A DNA stretch of 64,000 nucleotides, taken from contig CAVSSM010000002.1 of assembly GCA_963730605.1 (NCBI GenBank), positions 384,001 through 448,000 on the forward strand, in the 5' to 3' direction. Below are positions 30,040-47,782 of this stretch, one piece after another. This DNA comes from an uncultured Chlamydiae bacterium (GTDB lineage: Bacteria; Chlamydiota; Chlamydiia; Chlamydiales; SM23-39). The number at the start of each line of letters is the position of its first letter. The first letter of the stretch is position 1. Below the pieces are notes generated by a model. It saw only the letters and a program-made list of their open reading frames with translations, did not search any database and had not been told where the DNA came from. The position numbers and the translations under genes were made by a program.

Positions 30040-32481
30040 TTAAAAACTTTTGCCGATCTCGAGAACGCCCTGATGCGATTGATACTGCAAGCCAAACTCG
30101 CCTTGGTATCTTGCATCGATGTAAGGCGCTTTGGAATTAGATGAGATATAGAGCATCGAAAATTCGAAAACGCCCAGGTTTTGAGCTCCCGTGAGCGTGC
30201 TTACACTGAACGACCCTGGAGACCCAACTAGAAAAGCTGTGATCTGCCCTGTATGAAATGTCTTTTGATACATGTAAGAGCCCTTCTCGCGAAAGACGAG
30301 GGAGCCCCATGAAAATGCAGCGATTTCATGAAACCGCAGCCCTGTTTCACCTCGAAGAAAAGAACAAAACCGGCCCTCTTGGCCCATATTGAAACTGGTG
30401 GCGCCTTTTTCTTCAAACCCATTTTCCCAATTTGCCACCCAATCAAGAGACAGGAAGGGTTCGACCCCAAACCATTTGACGCTGCAAAAAGACGAGCGAA
30501 AGCCGTCATATCCAAATTCAAAGTGGGGTGCTAACTGCCATCCATGAATATGCGATCTTGCAACGCCGCTGACTCCGAAAAAAGCAATCTGGCGTTCATT
30601 GCTGGTGAAGTAATATCCGCCCCAAAGCCCCAAATCGAAATAGAAGTGATCTGCATTGACGGTGCCGTAAAAAGTGAGAAAACCCTGGTTGATTTTTGCA
30701 TGCCCCATCCCTTGCTCGTCATGGACATATGTGAAGACATAAGCGCTTCCAGCCCCAATGGCATTATTCTCAATCCCATTATAGTCAAAGGCAGCAATCA
30801 CCCCGCCCACGTTCATGTTAAATTCAGGAGTCTGGTTTTGCGCTTTTTCCCTCGCGTACTCGCCAAACGGGCTGACCCAAACGGCGTAGGGAGATGGCCT
30901 GCAGCAAATTCTCTCATCTGTTGTTTTCATATAAATCTTTTGGCCTGATGGTTGACTGCAAGTCTTCTTGATTTTTGGATTTTTCTGAATTTTTGTGGAG
31001 TTACTGGCTACAAGATCGCTTTCAAGAACTGCGATCTCAGCTTGCGCTGCAGGCTGATTGTAAAATCGCCTTTGCCGCAGGTGATCGCTCATCGCTTGGC
31101 TCGAGGCAAGATATCCATTTTGCGAAGCATAAGTGCTGAAGGCATTGCGCGCAGGGGATACCGACTCCAGGGCCATCTCTTCTCCCGAAGGCAGCAGGGC
31201 AAGAGATCGGATGACATTGATCGGCGCATTGGCATTGAGATAGGTGGCAAGGCTCAGATTATTTCCAGTAAGGCCAGCCGTTGGCATCTGGAGAAGAAGA
31301 GCAACGCCGCCAATCGAAGCCCCGGGGATCTCTAAGAAGCTCCTCAACAGATGGATTGCATGGACATCGCTAGAATTGCCAACCACATAGGCTATTTTAC
31401 CACTGAGCCCGTCGCTTTCGAAAGCAGAACTATCAACGCAAGGTGCTGGAGTCGCAGCCGTGATCGCATCCGTCTTCGATTCGACACTGTTGCTATCTCC
31501 ATTCCCGGCTAGAGCCGCATTGACATCCGGGGGAGGGATCTGGGTGGATCCCGGCTCTATGGGATAAGGTGCTGGAGTCGCAGCCGTGATCGCAGCCGTC
31601 TTCGATTCGACACTGTTGCTATCTCCATTCCCGGCTAGAGCCGCATTGACATCCGGGGGAGGGATCTGGGTGGATCCCGGCTCTATGGGATAAGGTGCTG
31701 GAGTCGCAGCCGTGATCGCATCCGTCTTCGATTCGACACTGTTGCTATCTCCATTCCCGGCTAGAGCCGCATTGACATCCGGGGGAGGGATCTGGGCGGA
31801 TCCCGGCTCTATGGGATTCGGGGCTACGGGTGTAAAGAAGCCCTTCTGCAAATCGACAATATACACATCGTCCGACTTTCCCTTCACATAAGCAGTATTA
31901 AAGTCGGAAAGGGCGATTCCTTCAAGCTGAACGGATCCGTCTCCAAGGGAATTCGGGGTGACGGGGGCATAGGAGCCTGTCAGCAAGTTGACCGAATAGA
32001 CGTTGCCATCGTTATAACCAACTACATAAGCAAGCATTTCATTTGCGATCGCGATGTGGCCAGGTCCCGGATTGCCGGAAATGGTAGTCAGGAGAGAGTT
32101 TGCGCCTGTAGTCAAATTGACGTTATAGACGCTATTGCTATTGTAGTCGACTACATAGGCTGTCGTATTGTTTGCCAAGGCCAAGCCAATGAGGTGAGAT
32201 GCGCCAGAAACGGTCGTCACTAGCGAGTACGTGCCATTTTGCAAATTGATTGCGTAGACGCTATCAGAACTTATCGCATAAGCTAGACTGCTGTTTGCCA
32301 AGGCAATATCGTAGACCCCTGCTACACCGCTTAAGGTCGCTACTTTAGAGCGCGCTCCCTTATCCAAATTGACCGAGTAAATCGTTGCATTGTCATCTCC
32401 CCCGCGCGGCACCTTGGAAAGGCTTGCAGAGACAAGCATGGGACATACAATCAATGAAGCAAAGCAGGAACGCGGTATCAT
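30040..32481 (-). CDS. Autotransporter with beta-propeller-like passenger and 42-aa tandem repeats
   Basis: Signal peptide, AYVV..VY.VNL blade repeats, beta-barrel C-terminus ending in F. Confidence 0.85.
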   Translation of the reverse strand: MIPRSCFASLIVCPMLVSASLSKVPRGGDDNATIYSVNLDKGARSKVATLSGVAGVYDIALANSSLAYAISSDSVYAINLQNGTYSLVTTVSGASHLIGLALANNTTAYVVDYNSNSVYNVNLTTGANSLLTTISGNPGPGHIAIANEMLAYVVGYNDGNVYSVNLLTGSYAPVTPNSLGDGSVQLEGIALSDFNTAYVKGKSDDVYIVDLQKGFFTPVAPNPIEPGSAQIPPPDVNAALAGNGDSNSVESKTDAITAATPAPYPIEPGSTQIPPPDVNAALAGNGDSNSVESKTAAITAATPAPYPIEPGSTQIPPPDVNAALAGNGDSNSVESKTDAITAATPAPCVDSSAFESDGLSGKIAYVVGNSSDVHAIHLLRSFLEIPGASIGGVALLLQMPTAGLTGNNLSLATYLNANAPINVIRSLALLPSGEEMALESVSPARNAFSTYASQNGYLASSQAMSDHLRQRRFYNQPAAQAEIAVLESDLVASNSTKIQKNPKIKKTCSQPSGQKIYMKTTDERICCRPSPYAVWVSPFGEYAREKAQNQTPEFNMNVGGVIAAFDYNGIENNAIGAGSAYVFTYVHDEQGMGHAKINQGFLTFYGTVNADHFYFDLGLWGGYYFTSNERQIAFFGVSGVARSHIHGWQLAPHFEFGYDGFRSSFCSVKWFGVEPFLSLDWVANWENGFEEKGATSFNMGQEGRFCSFLRGETGLRFHEIAAFSWGSLVFREKGSYMYQKTFHTGQITAFLVGSPGSFSVSTLTGAQNLGVFEFSMLYISSNSKAPYIDARYQGEFGLQYQSHQGVLEIGKSF
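31441..31817 (-). repeat. 126-bp coding tandem repeat, 3 copies
   Basis: Units start at 31441, 31567 and 31693; near-identical. Confidence 0.95.
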
Positions 32482-32832
32482 GAAAATCTCTCTTGGAATT
32501 CCCACCATAGACCTAGTTATCATTTTTTGTCCCCCACGCCGAATTTTCTCTATAGGGAACGACGAGCTTGCCGACCTTGCGGGGGGCCTTCGGCAATCTG
32601 CAACTACGGCTATATTACGGCATTTTAAAAACCGACCAGCTTCGAAATATCACATAATCTAATCCTCCCCATACGAAATTCCTAGAATTCTCGAACCTTA
32701 CCCTCTCTAGAAATGCCATAGAAATAACATAACTCGCTTATATAGACCATGTTACATAAATTCTTTTGATGCTTTTTATACGTTAAAGATTGGATATTGT
32801 CCAAATATCGACACATAAGACACAATAAAGTT

Positions 32833-33588
32833 ATGAAGAATTCAACGCTAGGCATGAGCCTCTTACGCCATCTCGCTAATCAAGGGCTGAGAATTTTTTC
32901 GACAGCACAAGCTCAAGCGGCTGGTTCGGAAATAGGAATGAATCCTGATTATGTGTCAGAAGCTTTGCATCATCTGAAGAACGGAGGATGGGTTACTCGC
33001 TTAAAACGCGGAGTCTACGCTATCGCTGCATATGGGCCAGCTCCCCATGAATTTGCCATTGCAATGGCTCTTGTTACCCCCTCTGCGATTAGTCATTGGA
33101 CAGCGATGCATTACCACCATGTCACTCAACAAACTCCTAATAAAGTATTCGCCACTACTCCTCGAGGAACCTCTATTCCGAGATCTCTAGCTAATACTAT
33201 GTTTCGTTTTATCCAAGTGAAGGAGGAGCATTACTTTGGCATAGAAACGGTATGGGTAGATGACATGAGGGTACAGATAACCAACCTCGAAAAAACCTTG
33301 CTTGATGGGCTTATATCGCCTGAATACTGCGGCGATTTTAGTGAAGTATTACGTGCATTTAAAATGGGCAAGGACAAGATTCGTATTCAAGTCATTGTTG
33401 AATATGCATTAAAACTCGATAAAGCAGTTGCAAAGCGTCTTGGCCTAATTTTAGATGGATTAGGGATCGAAAAAAAATACTTAGATCCTTTGCTAAAACT
33501 TCCAATGAAAAGTTACTGTAAATTTGATCCTAGCGGTTCTGTTAAAGGACCTTATAATACAAAATGGAAAATCCGAGAAAACGCATGA
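32833..33588 (+). CDS. Type IV TA antitoxin AbiEi family
   Basis: N-terminal wHTH (RLKRGVY), ISHWTA and T.LEKTLLD motifs. Confidence 0.85.
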   Translation: MKNSTLGMSLLRHLANQGLRIFSTAQAQAAGSEIGMNPDYVSEALHHLKNGGWVTRLKRGVYAIAAYGPAPHEFAIAMALVTPSAISHWTAMHYHHVTQQTPNKVFATTPRGTSIPRSLANTMFRFIQVKEEHYFGIETVWVDDMRVQITNLEKTLLDGLISPEYCGDFSEVLRAFKMGKDKIRIQVIVEYALKLDKAVAKRLGLILDGLGIEKKYLDPLLKLPMKSYCKFDPSGSVKGPYNTKWKIRENA

Positions 33589-33698
33589 ATATCATACCTT
33601 TACGTAATCGCTTAGATAGAGAGAGAAAAAAGAGCGGCATAACATTCGAAACAATTCAACAGGACTATCTCCTCTCCTGGCTCTTATCTGGATTATGA
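33585..33698 (+). pseudogene. AbiEii toxin N-terminus truncated by IS3
   Basis: MNIIPLRNRL...IQQDYLLSWLLSGL; stop supplied by the IS end; ATGA-coupled to the antitoxin. Confidence 0.75.
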
Positions 33699-37010: not shown

Positions 37011-37132
37011 TGTAAGAAAAAGATAGCACTATTTCTTACATGAGCTGCCTACAACTCATTGATTGTAAGGCAGTTAAGAATCAATAAAAAACCGCTTGCA
37101 TTTGTAAGAAAAACATGCCAGTATTTCTTACA
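37011..37132. promoter_or_regulatory. Two 30-bp inverted-repeat operators upstream of the TA operon
   Basis: TGTAAGAAA-N12-TTTCTTACA at 37011-37040 and 37103-37132. Confidence 0.75.
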
Positions 37133-37754
37133 TGAAGAAGAATCAAAAAAAATCAAATAGCATTGATCATCAAATACTTAATGCAATAACTGCCCTTGGG
37201 CATGGCGCTGTATTTGTTCCAACGGACTTTTTGAGTCTTGGCAGTCGGCAGACTGTCGATATTGTTCTTCATCGACTCGTTCGAAAAGGAACCATTCGCC
37301 GCCTCGCAAGAGGAATATATGATTTTCCTAAAGAACACCCTAAACTTGGAAAGCTTCAACCGTCTCCAGAAAAAATAGCAGAGGCATTAGTTGGCAGAGA
37401 TTGCACTCGTATTCAACCAACGGGCGCTTATGCAGCAAATATCCTGGGACTATCCGAACAAGTTCCTGCTAAAGTTGTATTTCTGACAGACGGGCCAAGT
37501 CGAACGGTAAAAATCGGTACAACAACCATTCAGCTTCGACGAACAACCCCAAAAATATGGCGATGGCAGGACGACTCAGCGGACTTTTAGTTCAAGCTCT
37601 CCGTGAATTAGGTAAAGAAAATGTCACTCCAGAACGACTTGAGCATTTAAAGCGGACTATTCCACTGGATGCACGACAAGAACTACTCAAGGATATTCGA
37701 TTTGCGCCGGAATGGATGCATTCCATTTTCAAGGAATTAGCCGAGGAGGTTTGA
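37132..37754 (+). CDS. DUF6088/AbiEi-like antitoxin (one frameshift in an A-run near 37552)
   Basis: RRLARGIY and AANILGLSEQVP; continues as MAMAGR..APEWM in another frame. Confidence 0.8.
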
Positions 37755-37755
37755 A

Positions 37756-38823
37756 GTGAAACTTGAATTTTTAAAATTATCTTCTGACGAACGACGCCTG
37801 TACATTGAACAAGCTGCCATTCAGAGAAATATATCCCCTGTAATCATGGAAAAAGATTTCTTCGTGTGCTGGTTACTCAGTATTCTATTCGAGTCGGAGT
37901 TCGCTGAAAGCCTTGTATTCAAAGGGGGCACTTCCCTATCAAAAATATTTGGCGCAATCAATCGGTTTTCTGAAGATATAGATCTTTCGCTGTCGCCTAC
38001 TTTTCTTGGACTTCCTGAAACCGCTGCAAATCGCAGTCAAGCTGACAAATGGTGGAAAAAAGCTGAAGAGGCATGTGAAATTGCTGTTCAAACTCAGATT
38101 ATGCCGATGTTAGAAGCATCGACATTGGGCGTATTAGGAAAAAATGAGCAGGCAAGATTCGAGTTTTTAAAAGACCCTCAAACCAAGTCACCAGTAATTC
38201 TTTTTCACTACCCATCATCGCTACCAACAGGGTTTGCCTATATCAAACGTTCTGTAAAACTCGAGTTCGGCTCTCTAACTGATCAGCAACCAACTGGGCG
38301 CCATACAATACGACCTTGGATTGCCGAGGTTTTCCCTGCAGCCTTTCCCGATTGGCAATGTGAAGTCATCGCTCTAGAGATCGAGCGAACTTTCTGGGAA
38401 AAGGCTACGATTCTACATGCAGAATATCATCGACCGCTCGACAAACCAATGCGAGATAGGTTCTCCCGCCATTACGCTGATACCGCGGCACTAGCCAATC
38501 ACCCTGAGGCAATCAAAGCTATTGATCAACATGACCTCCGAGATAGGGTCGTTTCATGGAAAAATCTGTTCTTTCGTGACTCATGGGCAAACTACACTCA
38601 AGCCAAACCCGGTACTTTTCGCCTTGTTCCTAGAGCTGAAAGACTGCCTGAATTGCGACGTGATTACCAGTTGATGCGCGACATGTATCTTACTGAACCT
38701 GTAAATTTTGATGACATACTGAGCACCTTGTCCGAACTAGAACATCGTATCAATCTCACGACACCTCTGCTCTCTTTCAGGGCGAGCGCATCAAAAGTTA
38801 GCGGCCAGCAACACCCTGTGTAG
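37756..38823 (+). CDS. AbiEii-family nucleotidyltransferase toxin (current C-terminus supplied by ISAs1)
   Basis: EKD, FKGGTSLSK, RFSEDIDL, RTFWEK and SRHYAD motifs. Confidence 0.92.
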   Translation: MKLEFLKLSSDERRLYIEQAAIQRNISPVIMEKDFFVCWLLSILFESEFAESLVFKGGTSLSKIFGAINRFSEDIDLSLSPTFLGLPETAANRSQADKWWKKAEEACEIAVQTQIMPMLEASTLGVLGKNEQARFEFLKDPQTKSPVILFHYPSSLPTGFAYIKRSVKLEFGSLTDQQPTGRHTIRPWIAEVFPAAFPDWQCEVIALEIERTFWEKATILHAEYHRPLDKPMRDRFSRHYADTAALANHPEAIKAIDQHDLRDRVVSWKNLFFRDSWANYTQAKPGTFRLVPRAERLPELRRDYQLMRDMYLTEPVNFDDILSTLSELEHRINLTTPLLSFRASASKVSGQQHPV

Positions 38824-39988
38824 GTAGTCATTATCAAGCGCCGCCTTAAACCGTTTGGCTCTAAATTTTTGCCGCTAACAAGTTCACAGCCCTCAGATTT
38901 TCTGGAGCGTGCCCTTCTACTATCGGATTGCGATCTTCGGCGAATACCACATCCAATACCCAATGACATCTGCTCTCAATGCTCCAATGCCCTCTAATCA
39001 CACGAGAGAGGGTTTCCGCTTCGGGTGGTAAACTGCTGATGTAATACTTGATTTCCTGTTGTCTTTTGCCCTCTGCCCATCTCACCGAGTCTAATTTGAT
39101 GATAGACCGTAGGCCCACCCACTCGTTCTTCTGAGGCAACCAGTCCAAATCATCCGTCGCATAAATCTTTCTGAACTCCATTCGTCCATGACCTCTCTCC
39201 TCCGTTTGAAAAATGTTCAACGGTGCATATTCATCTCCGGCCTCTGCTGCCTGGTCGAAATAATTCGCCACTTCATCCTGAAGGGTGGGTTGATTTGCCT
39301 TCAGGGCTAATACATAATCCGCTCCCATATCGCGTATCTGACTGGCGATATTTTTCTGTGTGCCTGCTGCGTCTATCGTGACGATGCTACCTTCCGGCAA
39401 CACCAGTTGCTTGAGCAACTCGGGGATCGCCTTGACCTCATTGGACTTGGAATCATTGCGAAGGTGTCCCAAAACCATATGGTTTTTATCACACCAGGCA
39501 GAGACAATATGGAGGGAGTGTTCTCCTCGTTTTGACGCAGATCGGAGAGTCTTCCCATCTATATTTATCAATTCAGGAACGATGTTCTGTACCGCTTTAA
39601 TCCATTCCAAGAATGCCTCTAGAAATGCGGTCGGATCAATGTGGCAAATAACCCGCCGAAAGGTGTCTGGTGATGGGATACCAGCTCGTAACTCGAGGAA
39701 GGATTGGAGCCAATCGATACGGCTTAACCCAAATTCCTCCATATCTTCCCATCCCTCAGCGCCACAAATCTTGGCCAGTAACGCAATCGTCACAATACCA
39801 ACGAAGTCGTGGTCCAACCGACAGGTTCGTGGATCGGGAATCATCTCGATGTAAATGCTAATGTTGGTTGCTTGAATCATAGTGCCTCCTGAAAAAGGCG
39901 TCTATGATCGTAAAATTTTTACTCAACAGTCAATAAAGTAGGGAGGTACGGACTAGAAAAATGCTGTTTTTTTGATGCGCTCGCCCTG
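38778..39988 (-). mobile_element. ISAs1-family element; transposase 38861-39880 with degraded C-terminus
   Basis: TIR CAGGGCGAGCGCATCAAAA; 9-bp TSD GCTCTCTTT (38769-38777, 39989-39997); IDGKTLR, TIDA and HWSIE motifs. Confidence 0.93.
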
Positions 39989-39997
39989 GCTCTCTTT

Positions 39998-40237
39998 AGG
40001 AGAAGCACTAATCAAGCAAAGAGGTGATGAATTAGTGCAATCCGTGACGAAAATCTTAAATGCAGGCGCTAACGTTAATGACACGTCCTGGAATGGACAC
40101 CGTCCCTTGCAATTATTAATTAAAGCCCAGATAGAATCACGTAAAAAACTTGAACTAGTCAAACGCCTAGTTAGTCTGGGAGCTGATATCCACTCTGCGG
40201 ATAAAAGTGGACTAACACCCTATCAGGTTGCTATTTC
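39998..40237 (+). pseudogene. Ankyrin-repeat fragment, former C-terminus of AbiEii
   Basis: ILNAGANVN..GHRPLQ..LVSLGADIH..GLTPYQVA; bounded by ISAs1 and IS982. Confidence 0.8.
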
Positions 40238-41274
40238 ACGCGATGTGCGAGTTTCCGAAGCGGAAAATCGCACATGATTAATAGAGGACAAGATGCTCAA
40301 ATTGCAAAGGCTCATTTTTTGTGCGCAAGCTGAGCGCAATGCTGGCTGTATGTGCCAGTAATTTTCTCCAAAACCTAGAGCATTGATGCCATAGATCTCG
40401 AGCCCGCACTTTCTCAATGTGAAATCGCTCAGTCAATTGTCCTATGACTGTTTCAACAAGACGTCGAGTCCCCATCATCCATCGCAAAAAATCTTTCGGT
40501 CGCTCATCTTTCATATTTTCTCGTAAAGGGGTCTCCAGATGCAATCCCTGCCCCTTAAGTTGATTCTGCAATTCAGGACGAATATATCCCTTGTCTCCCA
40601 GCAGAAGCCCCTTGATTTTCTCGACCAGTTCAGGGCATACATCCCGTTCATCAACATTTGCTTTTGCAAATGCAGCCCCGGTTATCACCCCGGTCGAACT
40701 GATCACAACGTGTCCTCGAAAACCGTAGTAACGTTCTTTTTTGGTAGCACAATAACCATACGCGGCTTCCCCCTTAAAAATGTGACTGAAGTGAGCTCTC
40801 GCAAATTTACAAATGGGGATTGGCAGGCCGTCTATTATATGCAGGGTGTCTCCAAAAGCGTTCAAGCCAGTTGCTAAGCGCTCCTGTAATAGGCGTTTCA
40901 CCACATGAAGGTTAGCAGCTTGTCTCGCAAAATTTGATCTGTCTGGAATTTTCGGAAAAAAATGAGACCAATGCCTTTTGAAATATTCCCAAATGGTTTT
41001 ATCGCAATCCATCCCTAGAAATTCCCCCACGATTTCGATGGCGATTACCTCACTATCTCTCAGTCCTGGCCCAGGACCTCTTTGGCGCAGTTTTTTTCCT
41101 CTAAGAATTTTTTCCAGCTCATCGTCTATTAGACAAAAGACAGATATGATAAAGTCGTCGATCGACATGCCTTGCACTCCTGTTTGGTTTAAGCGCGAAA
41201 AGTGTGCAGAACGGCATGTCATTTTTCAATTATTTCATGTGCGATTTTCCGCTTCGGAAACTCGCACATCGCGT
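40238..41274 (-). mobile_element. IS982-family element; transposase 40278-41168
   Basis: Perfect 40-bp TIR starting ACGC; YYGFRGH, GDKGY and RRLVETV motifs; no direct repeat. Confidence 0.9.
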
Positions 41275-41312: not shown

Positions 41313-42433
41313 TATACCGCTCGTGATTCAAAATTTTGATGCGTGAAAATTTCCCTTGACTGCACAATGGCTGCGTGAATTTTTTAACCGACTCAGAACG
41401 ACAGGAACTCAAACTCCGGCACCGGGGGGACCGCGATGGGCGGGTGCGTGATCGAATAAAGGCTGTTCTCCTCTATGATGAGGGGTGGGCTCCCAAAGAC
41501 ATTGCCAGGGTTCTGTTGATTTCTGACGAAGCAGTTCGTCACCATGTTGACGCATATAAAACGTCGAAAAAATTGCGCCCCGAAAGCGGCGGCTCCGAGG
41601 AGAAACTATCCCAAACGCAGTCCGAGCAACTTGAGGCTCATCTTCAAGAACACACGTACCTTTACGTCAAGGATATCGTCGCATATGTAGAAGTGACTTT
41701 CGGTATTGTCTATACCGTCCACGGATTGAGGGATTGGCTGCGAAGACACGGATTTTCCTACAAAAAACCCGCCGTTGTACCCGGGAAAGCCAACAAAGAG
41801 CAGCAACAAAAGTGGCTCGCCGGATACGAGAAACTCAAGGCAGAACTCCTCGAGGATGAGACTATCTGCTTTATTGACGGCGTTCATCCAACGCACAATG
41901 TGCAGCCTGCTTATGGGTGGATCAAAAAAGGCGTGCGTAAAGAGATCCCAGCAAACACAGGACGTGCCAGGCTCAATCTTTCAGGGAGCATCGATGTCAT
42001 CACCCACAGTGTGGTAATCCAAGAAGACGAGACTTTAAACGCAGAATCGATAATCCGGTTTTTCCAAAAGATCGAAGAATTTTACCCGAGTAAACGAAAG
42101 ATCCATGTATTTTGCGATAATGCACCGTACTATCGGAATAGGGCTGTGAGGCAGTACCTAGAAACGGCAAAAGTTTGTTTGCACTTTTTACCGCCCTATA
42201 GCCCCAATCTAAACCCGATAGAACGACTGTGGAAATGGATGAAGGAGCGGGTAGTTTACAATACTTATTACGAGTACTTTGAAGACTTTAGAGGAGCGAT
42301 TCTTGGTTTTTTCGCTGTATTGGCGACTGTGACCGCGGAGTCAACTTTAGGCCGGGATTTAAGAAGCCGGGTTAGGGATAAATTTAGTCCCTTTCAGGCA
42401 CCTGCTGCCAAGTTTTGAATTTCCTTGGGTATA
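41313..42433 (+). mobile_element. IS630-family element, copy 2; transposase 41375-42418
   Basis: Same length as copy 1 with at least two substitutions. Confidence 0.95.
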
Positions 42434-44897: not shown

Positions 44898-45140
44898 TCA
44901 TCGCAATGCCTCTCTAGATGACTTAAGCAACCCGCTCAGGTAGCTCCGTTCGGCTATCGCTTTCTCCGAATAGAAGCCGTGCTTAGTGTTCGCTTCGATC
45001 ATGCGTTGGCGGCCTTCTTTCGTCTTTGCCCCGGTACATTTTCCGCCGTGTAAACGACATCTCCCGTTCTTCATAGCTGGTTGACGACATGGCTTATGGC
45101 CGTTTGTTCGTGCCTTAGCTCCACACTTTACGGCGAACAT
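44898..45140 (-). CDS. HGGxSTG-domain protein
   Basis: CGAKAR..C..PAMKNGRCRLHGGKCTG. Confidence 0.85.
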   Translation of the reverse strand: MFAVKCGAKARTNGHKPCRQPAMKNGRCRLHGGKCTGAKTKEGRQRMIEANTKHGFYSEKAIAERSYLSGLLKSSREALR

Positions 45141-45679
45141 GGCTTATCTCCTCGATTTTCTGGCATACCCCCGCCCCCGTAGTTGTTTACAACAGCCATC
45201 TTATCAGCGACATGAACGACAGTTACTTTTTGTTCCCCACCACGTCGATAGCGTCCAAGAGCCTCAATGGTTTCATTGTGCAAGCGCATGTATTTAACGG
45301 CGATGTTTCCATAAGCGCTCATAAAATCTACTCGATCTGTTCTGTCAGCTCTTGAAAGACAGTCCATCCCGTTTCTGTAGAGGGCCGCTGCCTGCGAAAT
45401 TAGCCGAGCTTCCACCGCATCCTTCGGCCTCTGCTCATCCAACGTCTCAAGGGCAAGCTGCACAGATTTTACGTGATTTTGTGGGTCGACAGCGCAGGCG
45501 GTTTTAAGTGCTATGTGCTGAGCAAGGCTGCTTCTTTCCTGACCAACAGCGCTTTGTAGCGTTTGATAACAGTGTGCCATCCCCTCATCGATTCCGGCTT
45601 TACTGAGCTTGGAATTATTCTCTTCAATCAGAGCCCTATTTTTTTCAATCTCTTCTCTATACACGGCTTCTTCTGTCAT
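45128..45679 (-). CDS. Hypothetical protein of the type found next to HGGxSTG genes in integrative elements
   Basis: P.DAVEA.L..Q and YRRGGEQKVTVVHV motifs. Confidence 0.75.
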   Translation of the reverse strand: MTEEAVYREEIEKNRALIEENNSKLSKAGIDEGMAHCYQTLQSAVGQERSSLAQHIALKTACAVDPQNHVKSVQLALETLDEQRPKDAVEARLISQAAALYRNGMDCLSRADRTDRVDFMSAYGNIAVKYMRLHNETIEALGRYRRGGEQKVTVVHVADKMAVVNNYGGGGMPENRGDKPCSP

Positions 45680-45906
45680 TGATACCTCTCACAAAATTCC
45701 TTAGAAGCAATCCAATCTTGCCATTCTTCCTGGCTTATTTTTCCGGATCGAAAAGCTTTTTCCATCATCTCGTCCGGGCAGCTGTTTGAATGATAAGCAG
45801 CGAACACCACGTCTTCAGGCGCAACTTGGACGCCTTCTTTCCATATATCTTCGCAAAACGCCTTCATTAAGCCATCTTCCTTGCGAGATCTTTTCTTTTT
45901 TGACAT
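45676..45906 (-). CDS. Small hypothetical protein
   Basis: 76-aa ORF, ATGA-coupled to the downstream gene. Confidence 0.6.
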   Translation of the reverse strand: MSKKKRSRKEDGLMKAFCEDIWKEGVQVAPEDVVFAAYHSNSCPDEMMEKAFRSGKISQEEWQDWIASKEFCERYQ

Positions 45907-45944
45907 ACATCACCAAACATTATCATAAATCGAGTCTAGGCCAT

Positions 45945-47375
45945 TTAAAAGGCCTTTGATGAGACCCTTCCTCTTCTCTGACAAAACCGCTCCTGTAGAA
46001 GATCCGAAGCTGCACCTTTGGTTAATCCAACTGGATGGGCAACACCAAACTTGAGCAAAGCAGCGATCTGTTTTTCTGACGCCGGATCATTTCGCCAGGG
46101 TGCATCTTTCCTTGCGAGGACAGCGGCTCGTTGATTACGCACCCAATCCTCTGCGACCCCTAGCGCGTAGCTCAAAGGCAATTCCCTTTCTGCAAGAGGC
46201 ATAACCCGTTGATCATCATTCAAAATAACACGGTAGCCGGTAGTTGAAACCTTACGCACCCAAATATCACGCCGATCTCCCACAGATAAATGCCAAGCGT
46301 CTCCAACTTGAACCCAAGCAAAAGAAGAACGGTTGAAGAAATCGATCTCTTTGATGTCTGATGTCTCAAAAGCCCCAGAGAAAACCTCAACTGGCTGCGC
46401 CTCCTCTTCAACTAACTCTTTCGGTTTTTTCTCCCTGATTTCGAAGTTTGGCGAGACGATGCCTTCGAGAGAGTTTTCGAAGTTGCAGAGGCCCAGCCTA
46501 GACGCATCAACGAAGTCCATGACAAGGCAATTTGTCTTGCCGGGCGATACTCTAGTCCCGCGACCAACGCATTGAACATAAAGCCCTTGGCTTTTGGTTG
46601 GCCGGCACAAGAGAATCGCGTCAATTTCTGGGCAGTCGAAGCCTTCGGTTAAGACGCCGCAGTTAGTCAATATGCGGATCTTCCCATCTGCAAAATCTTG
46701 GAGAATGCGGCGCCGATCCTCAATGTCCATCCTGCCGTGAACTGTTGCCGACGGGATCCCAGAAGTCTTGAACGACGCGGCCAGGTCTACGGCATGTTTG
46801 ACATCGGCACAGAACGCCACAATCTTTTTCCTGTTCGATCCGTGTTGAATAAAAGAGTCGACGATCAGCTTATTTCTTCCTGGGACGTTAATTGTCCTGG
46901 CTAGCTGAGAGGCAACAAAATCACCGGCCTGAGTCTGGACACCATTTAATGAAACCCTTGTATAAACTCGACTGCCGACAAGAGGGGATAGATAACCATT
47001 TCGAATTCCCCAGGCTATAGAGCGATTGAAGACGATCTCTTCGAAGATTGAGGACAGACCTACACCATCGCCGCGTTTAGGAGTAGCTGTCACTCCTAAG
47101 AGGAGTTTATTCGGATCGCCTAGAAGGAACCCAAGCTCTCGGACAAGTCGCTCATAAGTGGGCGCGGCGCTGTGATGCGCCTCATCGATAATGCAAAGAT
47201 CAAAACTGGCCTCCTTGAGATCGATGAGTCTGTTGTCTCTGGATGCGGATTGAATAGACGCAATGACGATTTGAGCTTCGGGCTCGTGCCTCTCTGCCTT
47301 TACAATCCCTATGTTTGCCGATCCATCCCAGATCATCCCAATCTTTTCGGCTGCTTGGGCAATCAGCTCATCGCG
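45945..47375 (-). pseudogene. SF2 DEAH helicase (RadD/Irc3-like), 5' end with Walker A missing
   Basis: DEAHH, TATP, LTEGFD and QCVGRGTR present; frame begins at RDELIAQ next to an IS66 remnant. Confidence 0.8.
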
Positions 47376-47528: not shown

Positions 47529-47709
47529 GAACCCCAAGCTAGAAGAAAACTGCTTGGTTCGATCTTCCCTGCAAAATTGATCTTTCAAGATGGAAATTAT
47601 CGAACCAGCGCATTGAATCCGGCTCTTGCGCTTATCCTACAGAAAAATAAAGGCTTACAAAATGAAAAAGCCGAAGACATTGCCATTTATGAACATGTCT
47701 CCGGTGATG
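47529..47709 (+). pseudogene. C-terminal remnant of a large serine recombinase abutting tRNA-Phe
   Basis: RKLLGSIFPAKLIFQDGNYRT resembles the C-terminus of tRNA-targeting serine integrases. Confidence 0.6.

Positions 47710-47782
<73 letters not shown>

Follow-up and report, generated by a model that had tools for sequence, protein, structure and literature searches.

A small ankyrin module of about 120 residues forms the C-terminus of nine kinds of nucleotide-transferring toxins of the toxin–antitoxin (TA) type in the Chlamydiota. In the window, as the whole 64,000-nucleotide stretch of chlamydial DNA analysed here will be called, it is represented by a gene broken by insertion elements. The component parts and the AbiE operon type are already known. 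What is new, and surprising, is a portable domain on the toxin side, common to Fic and nucleotidyltransferase toxins and found within one phylum. The preliminary description of this DNA knew of no earlier account of such an architecture, and a literature search of titles and abstract openings likewise found no description of AbiEii–ankyrin or chlamydial Fic–ankyrin fusions, a mention in a survey being possible.

The broken gene begins with an AbiEii nucleotidyltransferase domain (37756–38777, plus strand), whose catalytic motifs are intact. The piece at 37756–38775 matches PF08843 (E 2.5e-36, 126 bits against a cut-off of 22.5), and the toxin also matches a PADLOC AbiEii model (E 7e-96). It is interrupted by an ISAs1 element on the minus strand (38778–39988), which has perfect inverted repeats of 19 bp (38778–38796 and 39970–39988), a transposase gene at 38861–39880 on the minus strand (NF033564, E 2e-106), and a 9-bp target-site duplication on either side (left copy 38769–38777, right copy 39989–39997, both plus strand). 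Duplications of 9 bp are also present at three of the four other full-length ISAs1 copies of the same genome. The window copy is 32 bp shorter than its sibling copies, a detail that had been overlooked.

Beyond the element lies the surviving part of the ankyrin module (39999–40237, plus strand). It comprises the cap helix, repeat 1 and the first half of repeat 2, the tail being gone, and its 79 residues (39999–40235) match Ank_4 with 23.7 bits (cut-off 22.7). The two pieces were compared with relatives separately throughout. They match residues 1–340 and 342–420 of intact relatives, so that AbiEii and ankyrin are joined in frame once ISAs1 is removed, as had been proposed. They are 94% and 91% identical, respectively, to the closest intact relative (P0003), and at the nucleotide level both are in register with intact relatives, with 96% and 92% identity to L113. 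The 3' end of the gene is removed by an IS982 element (40238–41274, minus strand; NF033520, E 1e-74), which begins at 40238 and has no target duplication. A deletion beside IS982 probably took away the last 38 or so codons. These codons were not found in the 83%-complete assembly, where a tblastn search with P0003 covers only residues 339–421; the preliminary description had suggested looking for them beside other IS982 copies, and they are neither beside the other copy nor elsewhere in the genome. An IS630-type element follows (DDE_3; 41313–42433, plus strand), with 14 near-identical copies in the genome.

The AbiEi antitoxin gene (DUF6088; 37132–37754, plus strand; PF19570, E 2.5e-39, with a match to AbiEi_4) is present as two ORFs, being frameshifted by a one-base deletion near 37550 that the preliminary description had missed. 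In relatives this gene is intact, encodes 207 residues and lies directly upstream of the toxin (PADLOC AbiEi, E 1.5e-72). The deletion may be an assembly error, since it adjoins homopolymer runs and is not covered by reads: contigs from four of the 20 sequencing runs cover neither insertion junction nor the antitoxin frameshift. The window copy of the operon is predicted to be dead. An inverted-repeat operator ahead of the operon is a feature of AbiE systems, and two palindromic operator-like sites, with no strand assigned, are found here: site 1 upstream of the antitoxin (37011–37040) and site 2 touching its start codon (37103–37132). All ten of the relatives' loci examined have at least one such palindrome, corresponding to site 2, and four have a second, upstream one like site 1. 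Site 2 would allow AbiEi to regulate its own operon. By every feature examined, namely domain and fold, motifs, upstream AbiEi and operator palindromes, the window operon is an AbiE system.

The ancestral gene had been supposed to encode an AbiEii protein with C-terminal ankyrin repeats, and intact fusions of this kind, searched for as had been suggested, do exist. The top match, P0003, is 459 residues long, and the intact fused relatives range from 457 to 488 residues; the fusion lies in intact open frames in genomes G064, G088, G428 and others. Among the best 120 homologues of the AbiEii piece, 30 carry the ankyrin part, 15 end in a stub and 75 are without the module, some of the short ones possibly being fragments at contig ends. 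An AlphaFold2 prediction for P0003 (pLDDT 86.6), of the kind that had been called for, consists of a MenT3/TglT-like enzyme followed by the ankyrin module, and Foldseek gives TglT/MenT3 as the top matches (E 1e-5, TM 0.6 by target). Residues K56-G-G-T-S60, R70, S72, D74, D76, K168, E170, E215, K216 and D242 are invariant in 52 sequences. All five AbiEii motifs are retained by 29 of the 30 fused proteins, 14 of the 15 stubs and 72 of the 75 unfused proteins. Among the long proteins 26 of 29 have the same N-terminal offset, as have 76 of the 91 short ones, and by the P0003 model both fused and unfused proteins start in a helical region.

The module opens with a pair of cap helices, continues with two ankyrin repeats and closes with a tail helix rich in proline and tyrosine; its sequence matches Ank_4 and Ank_2. 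Modelled alone, it is a compact, capped mini-ankyrin (pLDDT 91), which superimposes on 6moj_A (Z 12.4, rmsd 2.6, 111 residues aligned) and 3aaa_C (Z 11.9, rmsd 3.4, 110 aligned). The ankyrin fold explains the whole of the C-terminal part of the toxin, and a BID domain is absent. Myotrophin/V-1 and the capped mini-ankyrin binders of DARPin type have the same fold; since many ankyrin proteins tie within 1–2 Z units, the fold does not name a specific relative or ligand. Searches of the ESM Atlas returned generic ankyrin clusters only, and a PDB sequence search and a viral fold library likewise gave only generic ankyrins.

Residue conservation was compared between 47 modules (effective number 25.6) and 190 generic ankyrin repeats. 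An asparagine (0.82) and a histidine (0.95) are fixed in repeat 1, and an aspartate (1.0) and a serine (0.95) in repeat 2, at positions that vary in the generic repeats; in the tail a proline (0.87) and two tyrosines (0.88 and 0.95) are fixed. These residues are kept across modules whose identity falls to 25–50%. We take the fixed positions to be those usually used for target binding in DARPin design. The residues could also be structural, with the tail helix packed on the repeats.

The nine kinds of toxin are six AbiEii subfamilies, whose best PADLOC models differ (02289, 02294, 02305, 02293, 02304 and 02288), two nucleotidyltransferase-like groups (P0134 and L086, the P0134-type proteins being TA-like solely by a weak match to PF08843), and the Fic protein mob_myst_B. 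The ankyrin fusion to an AbiEii toxin described earlier is real, but it is not a peculiarity of AbiEii: the module is portable over all of these kinds, Fic included. A profile built from 12 modules has matches in at least 71 of 400 Chlamydiota genomes, or, after removal of generic ankyrins, in at least 67 of the 400, in 14 families. The 87 matches were classed from the loci read (for G369 and G224, from family matches lying next to them) as 38 Fic/mob_myst_B genes or remnants, 37 AbiEii or nucleotidyltransferase-like genes, three orphan fragments and nine generic ankyrins, the last scoring at most 67 bits and four of the nine being classed without locus sequence. In the same 400 genomes the module is found on 36 of 70 mob_myst_B matches and, among the matches listed, on about 35 of 804 AbiEii matches. 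In the loci read, which represent the toxin types other than P0133 and P0134, full-length carriers lie behind an AbiEi-like or HTH partner gene.

A profile of the tail alone separates members from generic ankyrins: in the best 120 of its 127 proteins, 88 matches are on these toxins, 11 are on module-only pieces of 96–141 residues and 21 are generic. The range outside the Chlamydiota was examined by a word-indexed search (3527 candidates), record titles and source names. All of the named true matches of the tail profile, among the matches listed, are chlamydial or labelled 'Verrucomicrobia', and a genome search places five records with the latter label in the window's own order. The module is likely to be restricted to the Chlamydiota. 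It has no match in the viral contigs, phages and plasmids searched, and a scan of metagenomes with a Fic-type module gave four close and six weak matches. Two carriers (P0212 and P0183) have the source name Ca. Protochlamydia phocaeensis, presumably the cultured amoeba symbiont.

The modules have histories different from those of the toxins that carry them. Window-type, P0133-type and P0134-type toxins have modules that are 85–86% identical, whereas the P0133- and P0134-type toxins themselves align with that of the window over just 54 residues or give no BLAST match. In a quick tree built from 90 modules over 126 columns, in which many forks are unsupported, one supported clade of 36 rows contains four toxin kinds, and three kinds are found together in another supported clade, of 12 rows. 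In AU tests on 40 of the 90 rows, selected after the first module tree had been seen, a single clade was rejected for the Fic modules (p-AU 0.004) and for the L090-type modules (5e-14), and not rejected for the window-type modules (p 0.065). The sequences thus indicate that the module is exchanged between unrelated toxins.

Judged by substitution rates, the module is also under purifying selection, with a dN/dS of about 0.15. The median is 0.148 for the module, as against 0.116 for the enzyme (16 genes, 116 of the 120 pairs, which are not independent), and the values for the Fic fusions are 0.169 and 0.136 (32 of 45 pairs, again not independent). Frequent loss, or cutting to a stub, nevertheless marks the module as dispensable. 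A tree of 68 Fic rows has 14 module changes, and long and short members occur together in one 90% cluster. The filter for Fic ORFs demanded the core motif and a certain length, and was passed by 30 of 34 earlier ORFs and nine new ones; the final arginine of the Fic motif, which was outside the filter criteria, is present in all 39.

On the basis of these observations we tentatively propose, with slightly less than even confidence, that the module works inside the bacterium as a sensor or adaptor, being a plug-in domain for binding through which the toxin would gain a second trigger. From what is known of the family, the AbiEii domain would add nucleotides to tRNA 3' ends, and an autophosphorylation induced by the antitoxin would silence it, as happens with MenT3 and the AbiEii of S. 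agalactiae; both the tRNA 3' nucleotidylation and this mode of silencing are given in the available part of a recent preprint (10.64898/2026.01.19.700257). S72, in the S-x-D-x-D motif, is the counterpart of the autophosphorylated serine and is invariant here. The concave face of the module would bind one conserved ligand found in chlamydiae, for which a chlamydial protein, a protein of a phage or mobile element, and a small molecule are candidates. Since the enzymes are unrelated, and their partners also, the module face probably binds neither, which suggests a common outside ligand. Its binding would promote the action of the toxin regardless of which cognate antitoxin accompanies it. The frequent loss of the module from proteins whose catalytic motifs are intact makes a trigger likelier than a brake. 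Several observations weigh against the proposal: the module is dispensable, few of the AbiEii matches bear it, its fixed residues could be structural, and a single clade of window-type modules was not rejected. In addition, none of 32 phages was held off by the AbiE of S. agalactiae (10.64898/2026.01.19.700257, available part), so that a defence role of AbiE is not automatic.

A more specific version, in which our confidence is lower again, is that the module is a lineage-specific, swappable mini-ankyrin sensor for one cue, which fits any Fic or AbiEii-type toxin and would bring many TA systems under one switch. Candidates for the single cue are a factor of developmental or host origin and a phage or element that invades the cell. 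The module may also mark the start of a path that leads from TA toxins to ankyrin effectors.

Alternatively, the module could turn TA toxins on the eukaryotic host, either by binding a host protein or by aiding export (type III, type I, or release by lysis). The toxins would then be incipient effectors, comparable to VbhT and the Beps of Bartonella or to AnkX of Legionella. A shared host ligand would account for the fixed residues and for the harmlessness of loss, and ankyrin proteins of Orientia are reportedly type I substrates, which would count in favour of export. All of the named carriers are Chlamydiota, which are obligate intracellular bacteria (PMC9997750, available part), and the joining of a secretion domain to the C-terminus of a Fic toxin is one recognised way for a TA toxin to become an effector (PMC5675462, available part). 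The models for Legionella Ank effectors, however, score far below their cut-offs on these proteins (for AnkX, 20 of 1400 bits). Type III secretion signals are N-terminal, and no N-terminal extension was acquired with the module, though such signals lack a consensus. The module has no match in 29 genomes of a small-genome family (f4), which says little, as genomes of that family are also without AbiEii (0 of 30). A protein-sensing, triggered role fits better than host targeting, because there is no N-terminal extension, because the toxin genes are still coupled behind partner genes with the operator kept, and because there is no enrichment of F-type type IV secretion systems (T4SS). We therefore regard a host effector as unlikely.

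No more probable, in our estimation, is a module that is simply a passenger, or a tag for folding or stability, fused by recombination during the exchange of TA cassettes. It would sit at the downstream edge of the cargo in tRNA-linked islands, and would be kept because a misfolded tail is harmful. Gain and loss are indeed frequent, there are the three orphan module fragments, and 25 of 95 module loci (which overlap and are mostly short) hold a tRNA gene. The relatives' copies of the operon lie in variable islands, often near tRNA-Phe, and in the window a tRNA-Phe gene (47709–47782, minus strand) is at the edge of a variable island. A passenger would, however, be expected to fuse to other cargo as well, and no non-toxin partner domain was found among the 99 protein matches listed or the 78 genomic matches. 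The residues that stay fixed even between modules 25–50% identical, and a dN/dS almost as low as that of the enzyme, also argue against it.

It is very improbable that the module acts like the BID domain of VbhT, as a C-terminal label by which a conjugative type IV system would pass the toxin on to other bacteria. The C-terminal position on unrelated TA toxins does parallel the BID fusions (PMC5675462, available part), and an F-type TraC is present in the genome from which the window comes. This TraC, the sole marker searched, is nevertheless found in eight of 67 carriers and 34 of 333 other genomes, kin among them not being independent; it is absent from several carriers assembled in one or two contigs (G428, G334, G190, G172, G249, G213, G090 and G307), and the module has no match in plasmids. 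There is a small chance that the explanation is other than those considered here. The frame match in the window might also have arisen by chance, a normal AbiEii gene being read on into part of an ankyrin gene unrelated to it. This reading is refuted, and we give it practically no weight: 75 of the best 120 homologues do stop near the RIN motif and lack any remnant of the module, but 30 have it, including the top match with 94% identity; the fusion lies in intact open frames in G064, G088, G428 and others; and both pieces are in register with relatives.

The in-cell sensor that we propose can be compared with several known systems. AbiEi–AbiEii of S. agalactiae and MenAT3 (TakA–TglT) are like the window system in their antitoxin–toxin order, and the likeness extends to the PF08843 and PADLOC matches, the MenT3/TglT fold, the G-G-T-S and S-x-D-x-D motifs and the upstream palindromes. 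The chlamydial system, known here from its sequence, differs in the extra C-terminal ankyrin module of about 120 residues on the toxin; the word 'ankyrin' does not occur in the available part of the AbiEii preprint (10.64898/2026.01.19.700257). VbhT and the Beps of Bartonella are likewise TA toxins, Fic included, that have repeatedly gained a C-terminal domain (PMC5675462, available part). That domain is BID, whereas the chlamydial toxins carry ankyrin, include nucleotidyltransferases and show no co-occurrence with F-type T4SS.

In AnkX of Legionella, also an intracellular bacterium, a Fic domain is followed by ankyrin repeats, and the chlamydial Fic fusions resemble it in this order. Unlike AnkX, they are mob_myst_B proteins of about 300–350 residues with two repeats, lying behind mob_myst_A-like HTH genes, and they score 18–20 bits on the AnkX model (NF043028, 938 positions), against its cut-off of 1400. 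The same pair of HTH and Fic genes is found in the mobile mystery proteins A and B (TIGR02612/TIGR02613). The fused proteins score above the TIGR02613 cut-off; that model has 186 positions and no ankyrin, whereas the module is present on the 36 of 70 chlamydial copies noted above.

In TAC systems the ChAD tail belongs to the antitoxin and depends on a chaperone encoded in the operon, and in CapRel the sensor part is the antitoxin itself. The chlamydial module is similar in being a transferable or built-in element that would add an input to a TA system. It differs in being on the toxin and folded, with a separate partner kept and with no conserved third gene in the module loci read. If the single-cue sensor is correct, the module would be the equivalent, on the toxin, of the ChAD tails and the BID domains.

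These results touch on how AbiE/MenT and Fic toxins are set off in vivo, on the role of TA systems in obligate intracellular bacteria and on the origin of ankyrin effectors from bacterial enzymes. The module is also the first lead on mobile mystery protein B, which is uncharacterised. One small domain on nine kinds of toxin is a ready bait, whose binder should expose the cue, and natural pairs with and without the module are available within one 90% cluster.

The window contains traces of a further system of this type. A second AbiEi antitoxin (32797–33588, plus strand; PADLOC AbiEi, E 4e-66) is a homologue of the one paired with the L096/L098 toxins, which bear the module, and is followed by the first 37 codons of a second AbiEii of L096 type (33585–33695, plus strand; 84% identity over 43 residues). 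This gene too is cut by an insertion element, at about 33696, and its L096-type relatives carry the module.

AbiEii genes are abundant in environmental Chlamydiota: in the 400-genome sample, 281 of 401 genomes have them, and together these give at least 804 matches. None was detected in the small-genome family f4 of the same sample (0 of 30 genomes).

In the window, the AbiEi antitoxin gene (37132–37754) carries a one-base frameshift as assembled, which represents either a real loss or an assembly error. Despite this frameshift, the catalytic domain of the AbiEii-ankyrin toxin is still an open frame, the present reading being 37756–38823. The ISAs1 copy that splits the toxin gene lacks 32 bp found in its sibling copies; this gap, at 38864/38865, affects the transposase gene's 3′ end. 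Each end of the IS982 (40238–40277 and 41235–41274) contains an internal 15-bp palindrome. The same ends appear to be present on a short element on contig C4.

The window also contains a second AbiEi gene, followed by the first 37 codons of an AbiEii of a different subfamily, the L096 type (together 32797–33695), which an insertion element breaks off at that point. The ankyrin module is present on this toxin's relatives too, and the L096 locus and the window have neighbour genes in common; the island may therefore once have been home to two module-bearing toxins. One contig (L114, G310:C28) carries both kinds of fusion, AbiEii-module and Fic-module, in two genes separated by 4.5 kb; both are close to tRNA genes, and their modules are divergent from each other.

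Modules are also found without a complete toxin. In L094 (1571–2005, genome G297), a module preceded by an acidic leader lies directly downstream of an unrelated 351-aa gene, and no toxin is detectable with it; it is either a relic left as an orphan or a rare case of the module being used on its own. Two Fic genes positioned after a mob_myst_A-like gene (L107, 2415–2756; L073, 2462–2920) are missing most of the catalytic domain, and their module is still partly or wholly open.

Elsewhere in the window, an autotransporter gene (30040–32523, PF03797) has a Pro/Ala-rich unit, repeated three times, in its passenger region. An HGGxSTG-domain gene, a gene for a 183-aa protein of unknown function and a truncated-looking helicase gene (44898–47336) adjoin tRNA-Phe and are probably leftovers of an integrated element. 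An intact F-type TraC is located on a different contig of this genome (G000:C8:6869-9253).
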